Shown in pieces: positions 22,226 to 64,000 of a DNA stretch of 64,000 bases. Each line of letters starts with the position of its first letter. Within the stretch, counting starts at the first letter, position 1. Made by a program: the position numbers and the translations under genes. The stretch comes from a phage, in the sequence record PZ445530.1; one strand, given 5' to 3'. Below the pieces are notes generated by a model that saw only the letters and a list, made by a program, of their open reading frames with translations, was not told the origin of the DNA and made no database searches.

Positions 22226-22459
22226 ATGAAAAAGATGATCGCAGTAGTTGCCCTGGTTCTGGAAGAAGAAATTAAAGCCATGCACCATAGCAACAGATTT
22301 ATTGGTGACGCGCAGGATAATATGAAAGTATGCCGCCATAAAGTTAATGAAGTGCTTAAAGAGTACGGCTATAAAGATCTTATGATCAAACGTGAGGAAA
22401 AATTCCGCTACCGTAACGACCTGGCAAATCGGATTTTTGAAATATACGAATCATTATAA
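22226..22459 (+). CDS. hypothetical protein
   Basis: Leader hairpin aggcgg-ttgccg-ccgcct, SD aagagga. Confidence 0.5.
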   Translation: MKKMIAVVALVLEEEIKAMHHSNRFIGDAQDNMKVCRHKVNEVLKEYGYKDLMIKREEKFRYRNDLANRIFEIYESL

Positions 22460-22478
22460 TTTTTTAACTGAATTATCA

Positions 22479-22504
22479 AGGGGCTTAGGCCCCTTTCTTT
22501 TTGT
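22479..22504 (+). terminator. Intrinsic terminator closing the plus-strand early block
   Basis: aggggc-ttag-gcccct hairpin followed by ttctttttgt. Confidence 0.6.
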
Positions 22505-24935
22505 CTGCTCTTCTCCTACCATAAACGGCCCTACCTGGCAAGTGGAATAATTGACTAGCCATCAATCCCACATACTGTACAAATATACATGGAAAATAAC
22601 TATTGCATAATTTTTCATTGTGTGGTAGCAAGTCCATTTTTACCCGTTTTCTCTCCCAAAAGTGCACGTAATGCCGCTATTGCACAAATTTTAACCTGAT
22701 GCACATCTCCAATATCTTGTCAACAACTAAAAATCTTTATAAGTCATACACTTACACAGCATCGAAAGCGTGTTCTACGCGAAAAATCGAGTATAACTAT
22801 AGCCGCCAGATCTCAGAATTCACGTACGCACGCCATTCTATAGCCTGCAAAGTATTTATTCCAACCACAGAATAACGGAATAGTCAATACCTGCATAAAA
22901 TAATTATTCGTGCAAACTGCATAACATAAATCAGCTCAGGTGTCAACATTTTTCGTAAACAGTCCGAAATTATAACGATGAGTTATCATAAACAGAGAAA
23001 TCTTTAGTCGTCTAATGTTTACTGTACATTACTATACTGACTGGAATCATTAGATGACTAAGAGAAAGATAAGAAATAATTAATAATGTAATTATTTTAC
23101 CTGTAACAATAAGGCAACTATGCAAACGAATGGCATGGCGCGACGGAGTCGCGACATAATATAAAAGCAGTAACCATCACCCCCGTGATAGTTTGTCTGC
23201 AAACTATTAATCAGATCATAGTTGCCTTGTATTTAGTTAATCATGACATAACAAGCAAGGCAACTATAGATCTGCTAATAGTTGCCCTGCTTTTATATTA
23301 TGTCATGCTAATTATAATCAGTGCGATTATTGTCATGTATAATTATTGTCATGCAAACGAATGGCATGGCTGATTATCGGTGTGTAAACAGTCAATCATG
23401 TAAATGGTTAGCATGTGAACAATCAGGAATGTAAACAATCCAGTGTGTAAACTAATAGGTGTGTAAAAGTGTCATGTTGTGTCAGTTAGGTCACATTATG
23501 TCAGACAAGTTTTTCTCCTCTTTGTCAAGTGCTGCATGAAAAATTTACAAACTGGTATGGTAGCATTTTTGCGGCCCTGTTTACATTCAGTAATGTATGT
23601 ATAATCCTTGTTGTGTGGGCGTTTAGACGTCTAGACGGTTGGAAGTCCACAGGTCAATATCTAATCTATCGGCTGCTAACTATATCCCACACAAATAGCA
23701 AGAAATATGATTGTTATATGCGTAAACTGTAACTCATGTTATCAATCCCTGTATGGATCGCCAGTGGTGCGCATAATGGGTATTATGTTAAATTGCCCGT
23801 AATGATAACTATTCTCACAATGATAGGTATTCTCATTCATCCACATAAAATAGGTTGCAAATGTTGTGCCACTGTGTGAACGGCCTGGCCTATTAATTTG
23901 CCTCACTGCCTTGATATTTGAGAATTGTTATAAGAATGAGAAGTATTCCCATTTCGTCCGCCTGGCAGCACTCCTGTAGGTCAGGTCAAAATCGTGGTAG
24001 AATTGGGCCTGTTCAGATATTTCTGGCTGACTCTTCAGGTCTGTGTGGGAAAAGCCAACCTCTCCGGCGGGGCAGGGGGTCATGACGGGAAAATTGCAGG
24101 TCAATTAAAAATTTACGTGGTGTATGAAGCGCTCTTCAGGTAAGGCATGTATTATGGGATGAAACCCGCTTCAGGCAATGATATTTGTGGGTGTGATATT
24201 TGCTGGAAAGCCAGATATGACGGGACTCCCGGCGGGGATGGGGTAGTACAGACAGGGAAAATATGAGAATGTAGTTGGGGAAATTGATCAGACAGGTAGA
24301 GTATGGAATATGTTACAAGTATGTTAAATATGGAGGTTGAATATCTGTAGGATTTGTGTGTAAAATCAAAGACTTAAGGGGTGTTGTGGTATTTTCTATA
24401 AATAATTCAAGTTTAATAGGCAATATTTGTCTCTATCCGTTTTGTGTGGTAAACAGATTCAGATTAGATTGGTTTACAAGTGTATACATAATATACAAAT
24501 TAAAGATACAAGAAACCCCCCTCCCCCCTTCGGCTACCATTCACCTTTTCCTCTGACTGGTACTTAAACACTTATTCAGACTCTTCAGGTTATCACCCAT
24601 ATATCATATGGCAGTGACTGGTGTCCTCCGGCCCCTCTTTCGTCACCCGTCCGCTTCGCCATGCTAATGCCATAGCCAATGGTTCGGTTGTTCACCCTGT
24701 TCACTCAGGTGTATCTCCATACCCCTTCAAACCGAAGAGAACAGAAAACCCGAATTACTCGGTAAAAGAAAAGAGAAGAACTTAATTTTATCAGGATAGG
24801 CAAGAATGTCAAGGCATGACTGCTCACTAAACAAGCAAACAGTCATGTGTGGAAGGTAAGTGATTGTGGTGGTGGGAAATTTAGTTGAAAGATGTGTTAT
24901 AGGTGCTTCCAGCACTTTAGCCGGGCAGCTAATTG
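22505..24935. repeat. Repeat-rich non-coding region at the convergence of plus and minus transcription
   Basis: No convincing ORF; inverted repeats ggcaactat/atagttgcc; tgcaaacgaatggcatggc x2; tgtaaaca-type iterons 23380-23470; CTCTTCAGG x4; duplicated tccggcggggcagggg unit. Confidence 0.5.
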
Positions 24936-24939
24936 TGTG

Positions 24940-25155
24940 TCAGTCCAGCGGTTCATCCTCTACTTCACTGAAATCAATGTTCATGGTCTCTTCCCAACCA
25001 TCGATCTCAGCACAAGAGTGGAGTTCTTTAGGGTTTACTCCCAAAGCCTCAGCAACAGAGTCTATATTTAACACCTCTGGCAGGTATGATTCATCGAATT
25101 CAAGGTAAATCAGGCCACGAGTGTTGTCAGCTCCACCAAATATTTCTATCTTCAT
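24940..25155 (-). CDS. Small acidic protein (MKIEI family)
   Basis: N-terminus MKIEIFGG, acidic C-terminus; SD ggagatt upstream. Confidence 0.45.
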   Translation of the reverse strand: MKIEIFGGADNTRGLIYLEFDESYLPEVLNIDSVAEALGVNPKELHSCAEIDGWEETMNIDFSEVEDEPLD

Positions 25156-26545: not shown

Positions 26546-26851
26546 TTATTCTACAGAGCGTTTGAACAGAATGTCTGCCTCGGACATGTGCTCAACCTCT
26601 TCTTCGATTTTAGCTCGACGTTTTTCAGCCTCATAGCGAATATCGAACTCGGTAGCCACCAGAGATTTGATGAATTTAGGAGAATACAGGTGATCCTGCT
26701 TCTCAACGAGAATGATATCCTTAATGGCATCTTTCAGATCTTTAATCTGAAGTTGGAGTTCCACCAGTTCTTCGATTGTCTTGCGAAGGCGATCACGCTC
26801 TGCAGTGTCAGAAGGAAGAGAGGTGAACAGTTCAACTTTAGATTTAGCCAT
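26546..26851 (-). CDS. hypothetical protein
   Basis: ORF; SD aaggag upstream. Confidence 0.5.
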   Translation of the reverse strand: MAKSKVELFTSLPSDTAERDRLRKTIEELVELQLQIKDLKDAIKDIILVEKQDHLYSPKFIKSLVATEFDIRYEAEKRRAKIEEEVEHMSEADILFKRSVE

Positions 26852-61305: not shown

Positions 61306-61380
61306 GCCCTGTTAGCTTAGTGGATAAAGCAGCGGCCTTCTAAGCCGTTGACACTGGTTCGAGTCCAGTACGGGGTGCCA
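61306..61380 (+). tRNA. tRNA-Arg (anticodon TCT)
   Basis: Cloverleaf by hand: acceptor gccctgt/acggggt, T-loop ttcgagt, anticodon loop cttctaa, encoded CCA. Confidence 0.6.
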
Positions 61381-61384
61381 AATT

Positions 61385-61471
61385 GGGGAGTTATCCCGTA
61401 GAGGTAGCGGTGTAGACTGTAAATCTATTGTCATTACGACTCGGGTGGTTCGACTCCACCACTTCCCACCA
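61385..61471 (+). tRNA. tRNA-Tyr (anticodon GTA), class II long variable arm
   Basis: Acceptor ggggagt/acttccc, anticodon loop ctgtaaa, long variable arm, T-loop ttcgact, CCA. Confidence 0.55.
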
Positions 61472-61585
61472 AATTTATAGTTTTAAATGCATAAATCATA
61501 CAGATAATGGCATTGATATTTATCGTCGTTTATACTAGTCACTAACTGCTCGAAAATCAGTGTCATTATCAGTATTGTTTATAAA

Positions 61586-61676
61586 TGAGGGTAGGGAGCA
61601 ATGGTGCTCAAGCGGTCTTGAAAACCGTCCCGTTGAGGATGACTCGATGATGGTTCGATTCCATTACCCTCAGCCA
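61586..61676 (+). tRNA. tRNA-Ser (anticodon TGA), class II
   Basis: Acceptor tgagggt/accctca, anticodon loop cttgaaa, long variable arm, T-loop ttcgatt, CCA. Confidence 0.5.
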
Positions 61677-61774
61677 TATTGTTGACCTTGTAATTAAGCG
61701 AAAGCCGGAAGCAGAACCGGATTATCAAATGTTACAGTCGTCATCGCCGACTAGCAACATGGTCAACATACTGA

Positions 61775-61871
61775 GCTAGGTAAGCCCTTTGGCAAGGGCG
61801 AGGATTTTTAATCCTGAAAATAGACGAGGTAGTCGTTGAATACATAGGTGGTTCGATTCCATCACCTAGCA
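61775..61871 (+). ncRNA. Aberrant tRNA-like element (97 nt)
   Basis: Acceptor gctaggt/acctagc and T-arm ggtgg-ttcgatt-ccatc are canonical, but anticodon arm folds as aggat-tttta-atcct (5-nt loop) with about 30-nt extra arm. Confidence 0.3.
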
Positions 61872-61879
61872 CCTTTTTT

Positions 61880-61955
61880 GCTGATGTAGCACAATTGGTA
61901 GTGCAATTGATTTGTAATCAATAGGTTGCAGGTTCAAGTCCTGCCATCAGCACCA
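61880..61955 (+). tRNA. tRNA-Thr (anticodon TGT)
   Basis: Acceptor gctgatg/catcagc, anticodon stem attga/tcaat with loop tttgtaa, T-loop ttcaagt, CCA. Confidence 0.6.
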
Positions 61956-61956
61956 T

Positions 61957-62031
61957 GGCCCTGTAGCTGGAAGGTTCAAGCAAGCGACTCATAATCGCCA
62001 GACGGTGGTTCAATTCCACCCAGGGCCACCA
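61957..62031 (+). tRNA. tRNA-Met or Ile2 (anticodon CAT)
   Basis: Acceptor ggccctg/cagggcc, anticodon loop ctcataa, T-loop ttcaatt, CCA. Confidence 0.6.
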
Positions 62032-62043
62032 AATAATAAATAC

Positions 62044-62119
62044 TCCGCGTAGCTCAGCTTGGTAGAGCGCCTGATTTGGGATCAGGAGGTCGAGTGTTCG
62101 AATCACTCCGTGGAGACCA
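62044..62119 (+). tRNA. tRNA-Pro (anticodon TGG)
   Basis: Acceptor ctccgcg/cgtggag, anticodon stem cctga/tcagg with loop tttggga, T-loop ttcgaat, CCA. Confidence 0.6.
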
Positions 62120-62939: not shown

Positions 62940-63223
62940 GAGTTGCTACACTGGTTATTGTGTGCTTGTTATTATGTGGGTGTGCAACCAACGTTGAGAG
63001 AGAATACAAGATTGACCCTCCGGATGTAGGAAGGTTGATTGTTAAACCCCCGGAAGGTGCCATGAAACCACCTGCTAAAGCTATGCCTTTGAAGAAAGGT
63101 GCGCCAGATGCAGTGAATTCTGGCATTATGAGGGATAATAATCTGTCTTGTAGCAATGATAGAGCTAAATTGATCATTTTGCAAGACTATATTAGAACAC
63201 TGTTTCCAAAGGAGAGCGGTTAA
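62936..63223 (+). CDS. o-spanin (Rz1-like lipoprotein)
   Basis: Lipoprotein signal with LLLCGCA lipobox-like cysteines; Pro-rich mature part; start overlaps i-spanin stop. Confidence 0.6.
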   Translation: MRVATLVIVCLLLCGCATNVEREYKIDPPDVGRLIVKPPEGAMKPPAKAMPLKKGAPDAVNSGIMRDNNLSCSNDRAKLIILQDYIRTLFPKESG

Positions 63224-63648
63224 TGTCTAAGATTTACGGACCGTGTTCTGAAAAGCAGAAGATGATCCTCGAAAACGATGCAGATATTTTGGTAATCGGC
63301 GGTGCCGCAGGGTCTGGCAAGTCGTTCCTCTTGCAATTGATGCCACTTAAAATTATTGATGACCCCCACAGCTCTGTGGTTATGTTCCGAAGAACAACCC
63401 CGCAGTTGGAAGGTGAGGGTGGACTATGGCCTAAAGCGGTAGCTATTTATAGTGATCTGCCTGAAAACATTAAGCCAAAGTTCAGAGAGAAGGATCATAA
63501 GTTCATTTTTCCACGGTTTGATCCGAACACTGGCAAGTGGGATAGAAGCAAAAAGGGAGCTGTTGTAAAATACTGCCACATGGAGTATGTACAAGATAAG
63601 CTTAACCATCAAGGGCTTGAGTACACCATGGTTTGCTTCGATGAGGGT
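63223..63648 (+). CDS. Terminase large subunit, exon 1 (ATPase N-terminus)
   Basis: Walker A VIGGAAGSGKS; Walker B MVCFDEG at exon end; stop codon lies inside group I intron. Confidence 0.7.
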
Positions 63649-64000
63649 TAATTTGTAGCTCTCGTAAAACCTCCCTAATTGCGGGGAAATCTTTACTATT
63701 AATACCACCAACCTGTCATGGTAACATGATAGAGGCTTCGAAGAGAGATCGAAGGTATGGTAACAGTGTGTTAATTTAGATAATCCGCAGCGAAGCATCC
63801 GAGAGGATGAACGTTCAACGACTAGTCGAAAGACGTAGAATCAAGCGATTCGAAACGGGAGGATAAGCGGTTGTTGTCGCTTATAAGATATAGTCTGGTC
63901 TGCATGGAGACATGCAGCTGCCTGAAAATGGCGGGGCAAGACTAGCGACCTTGCCCGAACATAAACGACACAATTCGAATGGGAGCAGATAGACTATCTG
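63649..64000 (+). mobile_element. Group I intron interrupting terminase large subunit (3' end beyond window)
   Basis: P aattgcggggaaa 63677-63689, Q taatccgcagcgaag 63781-63795 (identical 15-mer to pol intron), R gttcaacgacta 63813-63824, S aagatatagtc 63885-63895; no long ORF inside. Confidence 0.65.

Follow-up and report, generated by a model that had tools for sequence, protein, structure and literature searches.

The DNA considered here, a stretch of 64,000 nucleotides (nt) from phage sequence record PZ445530.1 (hereafter the window), contains a gene-free tract of about 2.4 kb (22496-24939) on which a rightward and a leftward gene block converge. Megablast of 22400-25000 returned 122 phage records with 90-97% identity, nearly all from Escherichia rV5-like phages of the genus Vequintavirus with genomes of ~137 kb; the tract is conserved at 87-97% in about 120 records, and, judged by these sequence relatives, the window is from an rV5-like coliphage of that genus. 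The final plus-strand open reading frame (ORF) ahead of the tract, 22226-22459, is followed by an intrinsic terminator that is carried as an annotation in phages Alma, Murica, and Gotham, whereas the right edge is formed by the last gene of the leftward block (24940-25155), which is intact in 18 of 19 relatives and has 6, 6, and 31 variable sites at its three codon positions. A first-pass annotation, made from the letters of the window, had described this convergence of plus and minus transcription, and both edges agree with it. On the evidence below, the tract is probably the genome-end (concatemer-junction) and packaging region of a phage whose DNA would be packaged in unit lengths bearing short, exact direct terminal repeats, in the style of T7.

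The non-coding character of the tract was assessed with an alignment of 20 relatives against the window (21 sequences), ORF intactness being scored in 19. Most ORFs of at least 30 aa in 22485-24915 are broken in these relatives, and no tract ORF shows a bias of variable sites towards the third codon position; ORF families built from all relatives were again without such bias and, as they were taken from every relative, a gene that is dead in the window alone would still have shown. The records of CM1 and I29 were omitted from the ORF-family and codon re-analysis because both carry duplications. Annotators of related records disagree fully on small ORFs in the tract (0 to 15 calls), a search for tRNAs found none within it, and E. 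coli genomes gave no match, so that the tract is not a host-derived element; an exact 20-mer scan of IMG/VR hit only two contigs. The rV5 genome paper (2013) had already drawn a grey box marked "non-coding" between genes 163 and 164 and noted a change of skew there, leaving the box unexplained. The first-pass annotation is upheld in finding no credible ORF; its view that so large a non-coding tract is unusual is weakened, given that the tract is constant in the whole genus and in two sister genera and that the rV5 paper had drawn it before. Conservation across the 21-sequence alignment is a mosaic, in which the top islands are 23120-23300 and 24514-24850, and two indel-rich zones adjoin both terminal-repeat boundaries on their outer side.

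The central feature of the tract is a 459-bp direct terminal repeat (DTR; Table 1). The record of Gotham (MT682716), whose DTR was published as 459 bp (PMC7471380), carries identical copies annotated as repeat_region at both record ends, and these align with 23504-23962 of the window without gaps at 93.9% identity. Terminal redundancies of 458 bp have been reported for EdH4 (MK327930) and HdK5 (MK373780) (Korf et al., PMC6563267), and the three phages possess the same ungapped repeat as the window, 94-95% identical and with the same boundaries; nevertheless, their reports give the repeat length only, with no link to the rV5 box or to the cut motif, arrays, and hairpin described below. The DTR was matched in 120 records and is of nearly constant length (457-460 bp among the matches listed), and in the records of ECP2309, EdH4, and HdK5 it is found at two places each. 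At least ten GenBank records, representing five submitter groups as judged from record names and papers, begin or end exactly at the window equivalent of 23504 or 23962; among them, Gotham, EdH4, HdK5, and four 'bov' records (bov10K2, bov11CS3, bov22_2, and bov25_3) start at 23962, and ECP2309 and EcoIv14a_Aya end or start at the 23504 boundary. The homology of the DTR and these record ends therefore place the physical genome ends in mid-tract; by this homology, the virion DNA runs from 23504 rightwards round the genome and ends at 23962. In the record of Shigella phage CM1, 523 bp are duplicated exactly and in tandem, the unit stopping at the position that corresponds to 23962; both repeat copies were probably kept when the record was rotated. 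A 546-bp duplication in I29, joined via a 120-nt perfect palindrome, lies at positions that do not coincide with the DTR; it probably arose in assembly and was disregarded.

Both DTR boundaries share a short motif, TGYYA/R (the slash marking the cut), in inverted, mirrored orientation, and the sequence at the first of them, TGTCA/GACAAGTTTT, is kept in 21 of 21 relatives. The comparison extends to the Klebsiella phage KPP-1 of the genus Mydovirus, for which a 514-bp DTR at given coordinates was classified as T7-type by PhageTerm, with two-fold coverage over the repeat and read starts piled at its ends (PMC9862379). The boundaries of KPP-1, determined independently of those of the window, read TGCTA/AACACA and TGCTA/GACGGAC, and TGYYA/, a candidate recognition or cleavage sequence, is accordingly present at all boundaries of both phages. 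Beyond the KPP-1 boundaries, homologous sequence is found at 17-18 nt inside one (..CTCC..TTGTCAAG) and as GRCGGAC at the other. The KP12 record opens exactly with GACGGAC, GRCGGAC ends are conserved in ten further genomes, and use of the two motifs as delimiters yields repeats of 514-516 bp in all ten Mydovirus and Seunavirus genomes examined.

The same architecture recurs around these repeats. The KPP-1 DTR sits in a ~1.8-kb gene-poor tract between convergent gene blocks, and a corresponding tract of 1.75 kb is present in 4MG and SPLA5a, both of the genus Seunavirus. Short homologous patches connect the window with the sister tracts and are collinear on the opposite strand (the repeat end near a long branched hairpin designated hairpin E, the middle of the repeat, and GGCTGACTCTTCAGGTC), from which it follows that the order hairpin E, repeat, 17-mer is conserved. 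The 17-mer GGCTGACTCTTCAGGTC is matched at 17 of 17 positions in Salmonella phage SPLA5a and at 16 of 17 in KPP-1, both matches being collinear with those of the DTR and lying on the opposite strand; in these two phages it overlaps a TTGACC-17-TATTCT site directed into the tract. KPP-1 thus resembles the window in its gene-poor tract, its TGYYA/-bounded DTR with a homologous end, a hairpin E ~300 bp outside the DTR, and the 17-mer (GGCTGAC(A/T)CTTCAGGTC), and its DTR contains AATGAGAAT units resembling the AATGAKARNTATTCYCA repeats of the window. It differs in the length of the repeat (514 rather than 459 bp), in that most of the sequence cannot be aligned, and in that its hairpin E is larger, with two side hairpins; moreover, no TGTRAA iteron array was seen by eye between hairpin E and the DTR.

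Hairpin E is strongly structured, with folding z-scores of -8.9 (plus strand) and -8.4 (minus strand) as RNA and -10.5 as DNA. Its stems are almost invariant in the genus (21 relatives), variation being found chiefly in loops and bulges, as exemplified by a 33-nt insertion in the apical loop in rV5 and A147; a common A-to-T change at 23203 disrupts one predicted pair. A hairpin of this family lies 200-400 bp outside one DTR boundary in all three genera. In KPP-1, 4MG, and SPLA5a, a perfect inverted repeat of 20-21 nt with a spacer of 164-183 nt forms the same kind of branched hairpin, and BLAST matched the sister-genus element to 64 records (Mydovirus, Seunavirus, and relatives). It measures 190-265 nt in the sister genera and, in the ten genomes examined for the cut motifs, lies 232-403 bp beyond the motif-defined repeat. 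Folding z-scores across the elements range from about -8 to -12 (-11.7 in KPP-1). In a 10-sequence alignment, the 52 pairs of hairpin E are 99.4% paired and eight of them show compensatory double changes, a covariation score reached by none of 500 shuffles, while slid controls gave zero. The outer arm, GACACAATAACACGAGGG in the sister genera and GACATAATATAAAAGCAG in the window, differs at 8 of 18 positions, all of which are matched on the opposite arm. In three columns of the sister-genus hairpins, G.U pairs occur on one strand only, which is a weak hint that a single strand of hairpin E folds. As a separate observation, seven relatives (rV5, Murica, WM, CM1, I29, PDX, and A147) have 29 additional nt immediately to the right of hairpin E (after 23310); this insertion, which the window lacks, forms a G+C-rich hairpin (..ACCCGAAGGGGTGACC..GGTCACC..).

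Table 1. Features of the gene-free tract and its edges, in window coordinates (a slash marks the cut; pi, nucleotide diversity)
Feature	Position	Strand	Remarks
Intrinsic terminator, end of rightward gene block	22478-22495	+	7-bp G+C stem, 4-nt loop, then TCTTTTTGTC
C-rich/G-poor, fast-evolving spacer for RNA from the left (Rho-site-like)	22500-22960	+	C 111, G 64; pi 0.06-0.16
Imperfect inverted repeat TAGTCGTCTAATG...CATTAGATGACTA, 13-nt arms	23007-23061		12/13 complementary
Exact 20-mer ATGCAAACGAATGGCATGGC, copy 1, left of hairpin E	23120-23139	+	Near-invariant in 21 aligned; one substitution, in WM
Hairpin E, long branched hairpin/palindrome, 152 nt	23153-23304		Outer, side, and inner stems
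Hairpin E, outer stem, 18 bp, perfect	23153-23170 / 23287-23304		
Hairpin E, side hairpin	23172-23193		
Hairpin E, inner stem, ~30 bp	about 23199-23229 / 23256-23288		
Exact 20-mer ATGCAAACGAATGGCATGGC, copy 2, right of hairpin E	23351-23370	+	In 21/21 relatives, some with single-base variants
Six TGTRAA(Y) iterons, ~16 nt each	23383-23467	+	Spacings 16, 15, 16, 16, 16
Four (T/G)GTCA units	23470-23503	+	Starts 23470, 23480, 23489, 23499; spacings 10, 9, 10
Cut site 1, TGTCA/GACAAG	23499-23509	+	Gotham DTR boundary
Direct terminal repeat (DTR), 459 bp	23504-23962		Single copy here (circular-style assembly); by homology, two copies in the virion
Three 17-nt repeats AATGAKARNTATTCYCA within the DTR, close to cut site 2	23801-23951	+	
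Cut site 2, TGCCA/GGCGGAC	23957-23968	-	Starts of Gotham, EdH4, HdK5, and 'bov' records
Modular indel zone just beyond the DTR	23963-24024		Duplications bounded by GGCAGCACTCC and CCTGTAGGTC (20-relative alignment)
Conserved 17-mer GGCTGACTCTTCAGGTC	24025-24041	+	Holds the first CTCTTCAGG
C-rich/G-poor spacer for RNA from the right (Rho-site-like)	24140-24470	-	C 93, G 33
Genus-specific, almost invariant block	24514-24850		pi 0-0.04; begins abruptly at a C6TC6 run
Predicted near-consensus sigma-70-type promoter	24785-24812	-	TTGACA-16-TAAAAT plus upstream TG, 11/12 matches
Last gene of leftward block, 71 aa, right edge of tract	24940-25155	-	Annotated in relatives

The short repeats named by the first-pass annotation all exist and exceed chance expectation. 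The TGTRAA cluster is the only one in 64 kb (Poisson P ~7e-8); counted by eye, relatives have between about 1 and 11 copies of the unit, WM having the fewest, and the iteron zone is indel-rich, spanning 175-328 nt in relatives and 220 nt in the corresponding stretch of the window. The (T/G)GTCA units that follow are spaced by about one helical turn, and the last finishes on the final base ahead of the DTR; iterons and (T/G)GTCA units together lie in the left indel-rich zone (23305-23503), and modular duplications make up the right one (23963-24100). Tandem Repeats Finder made a single detection, an 18-nt period with 1.9 copies inside the DTR, and missed the diverged iterons. The sequence AAGGCAACTAT is found twice on the plus strand (23111 and 23257) and once on the minus strand (23218), where a further copy, at 23278, has one mismatch; at up to one mismatch there are 9 matches in the window against 1.45 expected. 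The imperfect inverted repeat at 23007-23061 is conserved (pi ~0.035) and has folding z-scores of -3.6 (+) and -2.7 (-). For CTCTTCAGG, whose coordinates in the first-pass annotation were 1-9 nt off, the positions are 24031, 24132, 24581, and 25229, and seven copies are present in the window against 0.46 expected; four copies are non-coding, and the three that lie beyond the tract encode Pro-Glu-Glu in frame within genes, so that CTCTTCAGG was rejected as a genome-wide motif. Neither the G-rich CCGGCGGGG units nor a terminator-like site at 24750-24762 gave a significant fold.

On either side of this core, the RNA entering the tract would be rich in C and poor in G. The highest (C-G)/(C+G) over 300 nt is 0.31 in the left and 0.50 in the right spacer, compared with a coding sense-strand maximum of 0.252 (1086 windows), and about 230 nt within the right spacer (24240-24470) are nearly free of C on the plus strand (17 C and 60 G). 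As Rho uses untranslated RNA with more C than G, we infer that Rho-dependent back-up termination holds both converging units out of the junction. Between the right spacer and the leftward gene block lies the almost invariant block, for which a query with 24500-24860 gave 97-100% identity in 119 records, all Vequintavirus. The predicted promoter inside it, reading from 24812 to 24785, is the best site in the scan and has no ORF behind it. RNA folds of 24505-24780 were no better than shuffles on either strand (z -1.2 and -0.1), and Rfam 15 gave no tract match at the gathering score, a permissive search (E up to 5) returning one chance-level match with E = 4.9.

The tract holds the DTR together with both cut sites known from close relatives, which supports a role in packaging and at the genome ends; of the origin, packaging, regulatory, and RNA functions that the first-pass annotation had listed as options, it is this one that has support. 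In the mechanism proposed, replication would produce head-to-tail concatemers with one repeat per junction, whereupon terminase, positioned by the phased TGTCA units with the 16-nt iterons perhaps contributing, would cut after TGYYA on opposite strands at the two boundaries. Such nicks would leave 5' overhangs and recessed 3'-OH ends, from which a polymerase could extend through the repeat so that a complete copy is present on both daughter ends. It is by such fill-in of recessed ends that the formation of T7-type ends is classically explained (summarised in PMC4281155). Hairpin E may act in cis, as a single-strand or cruciform element, in end processing or end replication, and is perhaps comparable to the hairpin intermediate of T7 concatemers, while the intrinsic terminator and the two spacers with more C than G would halt converging transcription short of the junction. 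A bolder form of this proposal, in which hairpin E is an obligatory cis-acting, strand-specific DNA structure of at least three Vequintavirinae genera that primes or guides duplication of the terminal repeat or starts DNA synthesis at the genome end, with the mirrored TGYYA/ as terminase nicking sites, is put forward tentatively and is more apt to be wrong than right; if true, hairpin E and TGYYA/ would together form the first set of cis-acting elements to be defined for the making of short terminal repeats by a large myovirus.

A close parallel is the T7 junction, which reportedly comprises a 160-bp terminal repeat with flanking arrays SRL and SRR and passes through a hairpin intermediate (Dunn and Studier, 1983; Chung, Nardone, and Hinkle, 1990). 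The two share a short, exact terminal repeat that occurs once per junction and needs duplication, short-repeat arrays adjoining that repeat (here the six TGTRAA and four GTCA units, with modular duplications on the opposite side), and a palindrome or hairpin near one end. They nevertheless lack sequence similarity, and the present repeat has three times the length, its hairpin is branched and measures 150-260 nt, and the phage is a 137-kb myovirus that uses the host RNA polymerase, with no T7-polymerase pause site; furthermore, all T7 genes read away from the left end, whereas here genes converge on the ends. The rV5 genome paper reported sigma-70-like promoters and no T7-type RNA polymerase, and a phage-polymerase pause site is therefore probably not applicable.

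Several points weigh against this account of the tract. The ends of the phage under study are placed through homology alone, and PhageTerm indicated circular permutation or headful packaging for Vequintavirus isolates in two papers (PMC8407724 and PMC13211470), a call tempered by the fact that later record versions from the first of these start at the DTR. The duplicated unit of CM1 is 523 bp and not 459, such that one boundary may vary or the duplication may be an assembly artefact. The terminase genes are ~40 kb off and thus lend no support from linkage, ~340 bp of near-invariant sequence with an orphan promoter (24514-24850) are not accounted for by packaging, and we infer the roles of the iterons and hairpin E and the polarity of nicking.

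The chief competitor is a replication origin in the left half of the tract, alone or beside packaging, with an initiator binding the 16-nt iterons, the A+T-rich 23305-23350 melting, hairpin E serving as a single-strand initiation or primosome signal, and the orphan promoter at 24812 possibly giving a primer or R-loop RNA that ends at the G6AG6 run. Single-strand initiation signals of this sort are known as the sso/ssi of rolling-circle plasmids and the complementary-strand origins of G4 and M13, which the large, perhaps strand-specific hairpin resembles, just as direct repeats beside A+T-rich DNA resemble iteron origins such as lambda ori and plasmid oriV. The setting of the iterons next to A+T-rich DNA (30-32% G+C at 23270-23359) and a strongly structured element, the one-strand G.U pairs in the sister genera, and a strong predicted promoter without a gene all speak for an origin, as would the cumulative GC skew, which peaks at the tract and was seen by the rV5 paper too; however, the switch in skew coincides with the switch in transcription direction, and the skew is for this reason uninformative. 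Moreover, DnaA boxes are not enriched (5 against 8.5 expected), none of the genes on the flanks, which are small and lack Pfam hits, resembles an initiator, and the 16-nt period is not helically phased, with ~1 to 11 copies among near-identical phages and no array found by eye at the KPP-1 position. The array abuts the cut site, the last units being phased at 10 nt up to the cut. In lacking an initiator gene and DnaA boxes, in the instability of iteron number, and in lying at a packaging cut site, the element departs from iteron-type origins, and an origin, which is overall without positive support, is doubtful. Slightly less likely still is that the conserved islands are non-coding RNA genes, with a minus-strand transcript from 24812 over the invariant block and/or hairpin E. 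The near-consensus promoter within a block that is 97-100% conserved, the covariation and G.U pairs of hairpin E, which would fit RNA as well, and the site overlapping the 17-mer in KPP-1 and SPLA5a point in this direction, but the block folds no better than shuffles, Rfam offers no match either at the gathering score or at E up to 5, and no terminator closes the putative transcript. Hairpin E, for its part, folds as well on one strand of the window as on the other, as is expected of a DNA palindrome, and has no conserved promoter beside it, the sequence on its right being replaced in many relatives; an RNA gene is accordingly possible for the invariant block and not supported for hairpin E.

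The first-pass annotation had allowed that the region might prove to be unconserved filler or to contain a missed gene, and comparison with related phages, which finds the tract conserved, bears out neither; both were rejected for the conserved parts. Were the tract unconstrained filler or decayed genes between two transcription units, its repeats would be functionless products of slippage, a reading with which the fast evolution and many indels of the spacers 22500-22960, 23305-23500, and 23963-24100 and the annotator-dependent calls of small ORFs agree. It is nonetheless very improbable, as the tract islands vary less than the genes on either side do (pi 0.00-0.03 as opposed to 0.03-0.09), the DTR length is nearly fixed, and the cut motifs and hairpin E persist over three genera with compensatory changes. 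An overlooked gene for a small protein is, if anything, marginally less credible than filler. Three ORFs, some of which are annotated in relatives, are intact in 19 of 19 (23012-23125, minus strand), 16 of 19 (23736-23879, plus strand), and 18 of 19 relatives (24585-24704, minus strand), yet such intactness says little because the surrounding sequence barely varies. Their variable sites by codon position ([5,11,7], [14,17,14], and [3,3,3], respectively) lack the third-position bias of the control gene 24940-25155, and most tract ORFs begin with GTG or TTG.

Some observations on neighbouring genes and records may be added. The ORF at 22226-22459 encodes 77 aa here, and many relatives, including rV5 (ORF164), have a 139-aa ORF at the same place, whereas others have a 264-bp gene annotated 'DNA translocase'; the gene beside the genome end appears to be frequently exchanged among relatives. 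The minus-strand gene at 26546-26851 encodes a 101-aa protein that is conserved in Vequintavirinae and beyond (223 records, with homologues in Klebsiella, Salmonella, Cronobacter, Aeromonas, and Acinetobacter phages) and is called 'transcriptional regulator' in some records, although it has no Pfam match. An attempt to anchor the tract in distant genera via this regulator-like gene failed because gene order differs there, and the sister tracts were instead located from the published DTR coordinates of KPP-1; the difference in neighbourhood between genera shows a large rearrangement relative to Mydovirus and Seunavirus. At 63223-63651, an ORF corresponds to the N-terminal part (exon 1) of the large terminase (Pfam Terminase_6N, E = 1e-5) and runs into a group I intron (Rfam RF00028, 84 bits, 63639-63917), which fits the split terminase gene of rV5. 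A cluster of seven tRNA genes occupies 61306-62119 and includes a 99-nt tRNA (61775-61873; ARAGORN 'tRNA-???', four-base anticodon atcc, Rfam 35.5 bits) that could be intron-containing or otherwise unusual. Lastly, ~19 MG0656xx records named 'Campylobacter phage' (e.g., MG065644) are 88-95% identical to the tract; several are UNVERIFIED, unannotated, and of odd length, NCBI classes them as Vequintavirus, and they are probably mislabelled or contaminant coliphages.

The DTR of close relatives and the "non-coding" box of rV5 were already known. As far as the searched, incomplete literature shows, the link between the two is new, as are the mirrored cut motif, the covarying hairpin, the phased arrays, and the flanks with more C than G; neither a Vequintavirus transcriptome nor a description of hairpin E was found in that literature. 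The tract is a better-resolved case of known short-terminal-repeat genome ends and not a new type of system. It accounts for the box on rV5-type maps, which had been open since 2013 and into which gene callers put up to 15 spurious ORFs. It also provides a sequence rule for the true ends in Vequintavirus, Mydovirus, and Seunavirus, namely TGYYA/GRCGGAC at one boundary and, at the other, TGTCA/GACAAG (Vequintavirus) or the reverse complement of TGYTA/AACAC (the sister genera). The start position is arbitrary in most records of these genera, and some report headful packaging. Such phages are in wide use as candidates for therapy and biocontrol, and genome rebooting, in-vitro packaging, and the assessment of transduction risk hinge on knowing the ends and the cis elements to be retained. 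In addition, the hairpin and the mirrored cut motif make the duplication of short terminal repeats testable in a second, unrelated group of phages.

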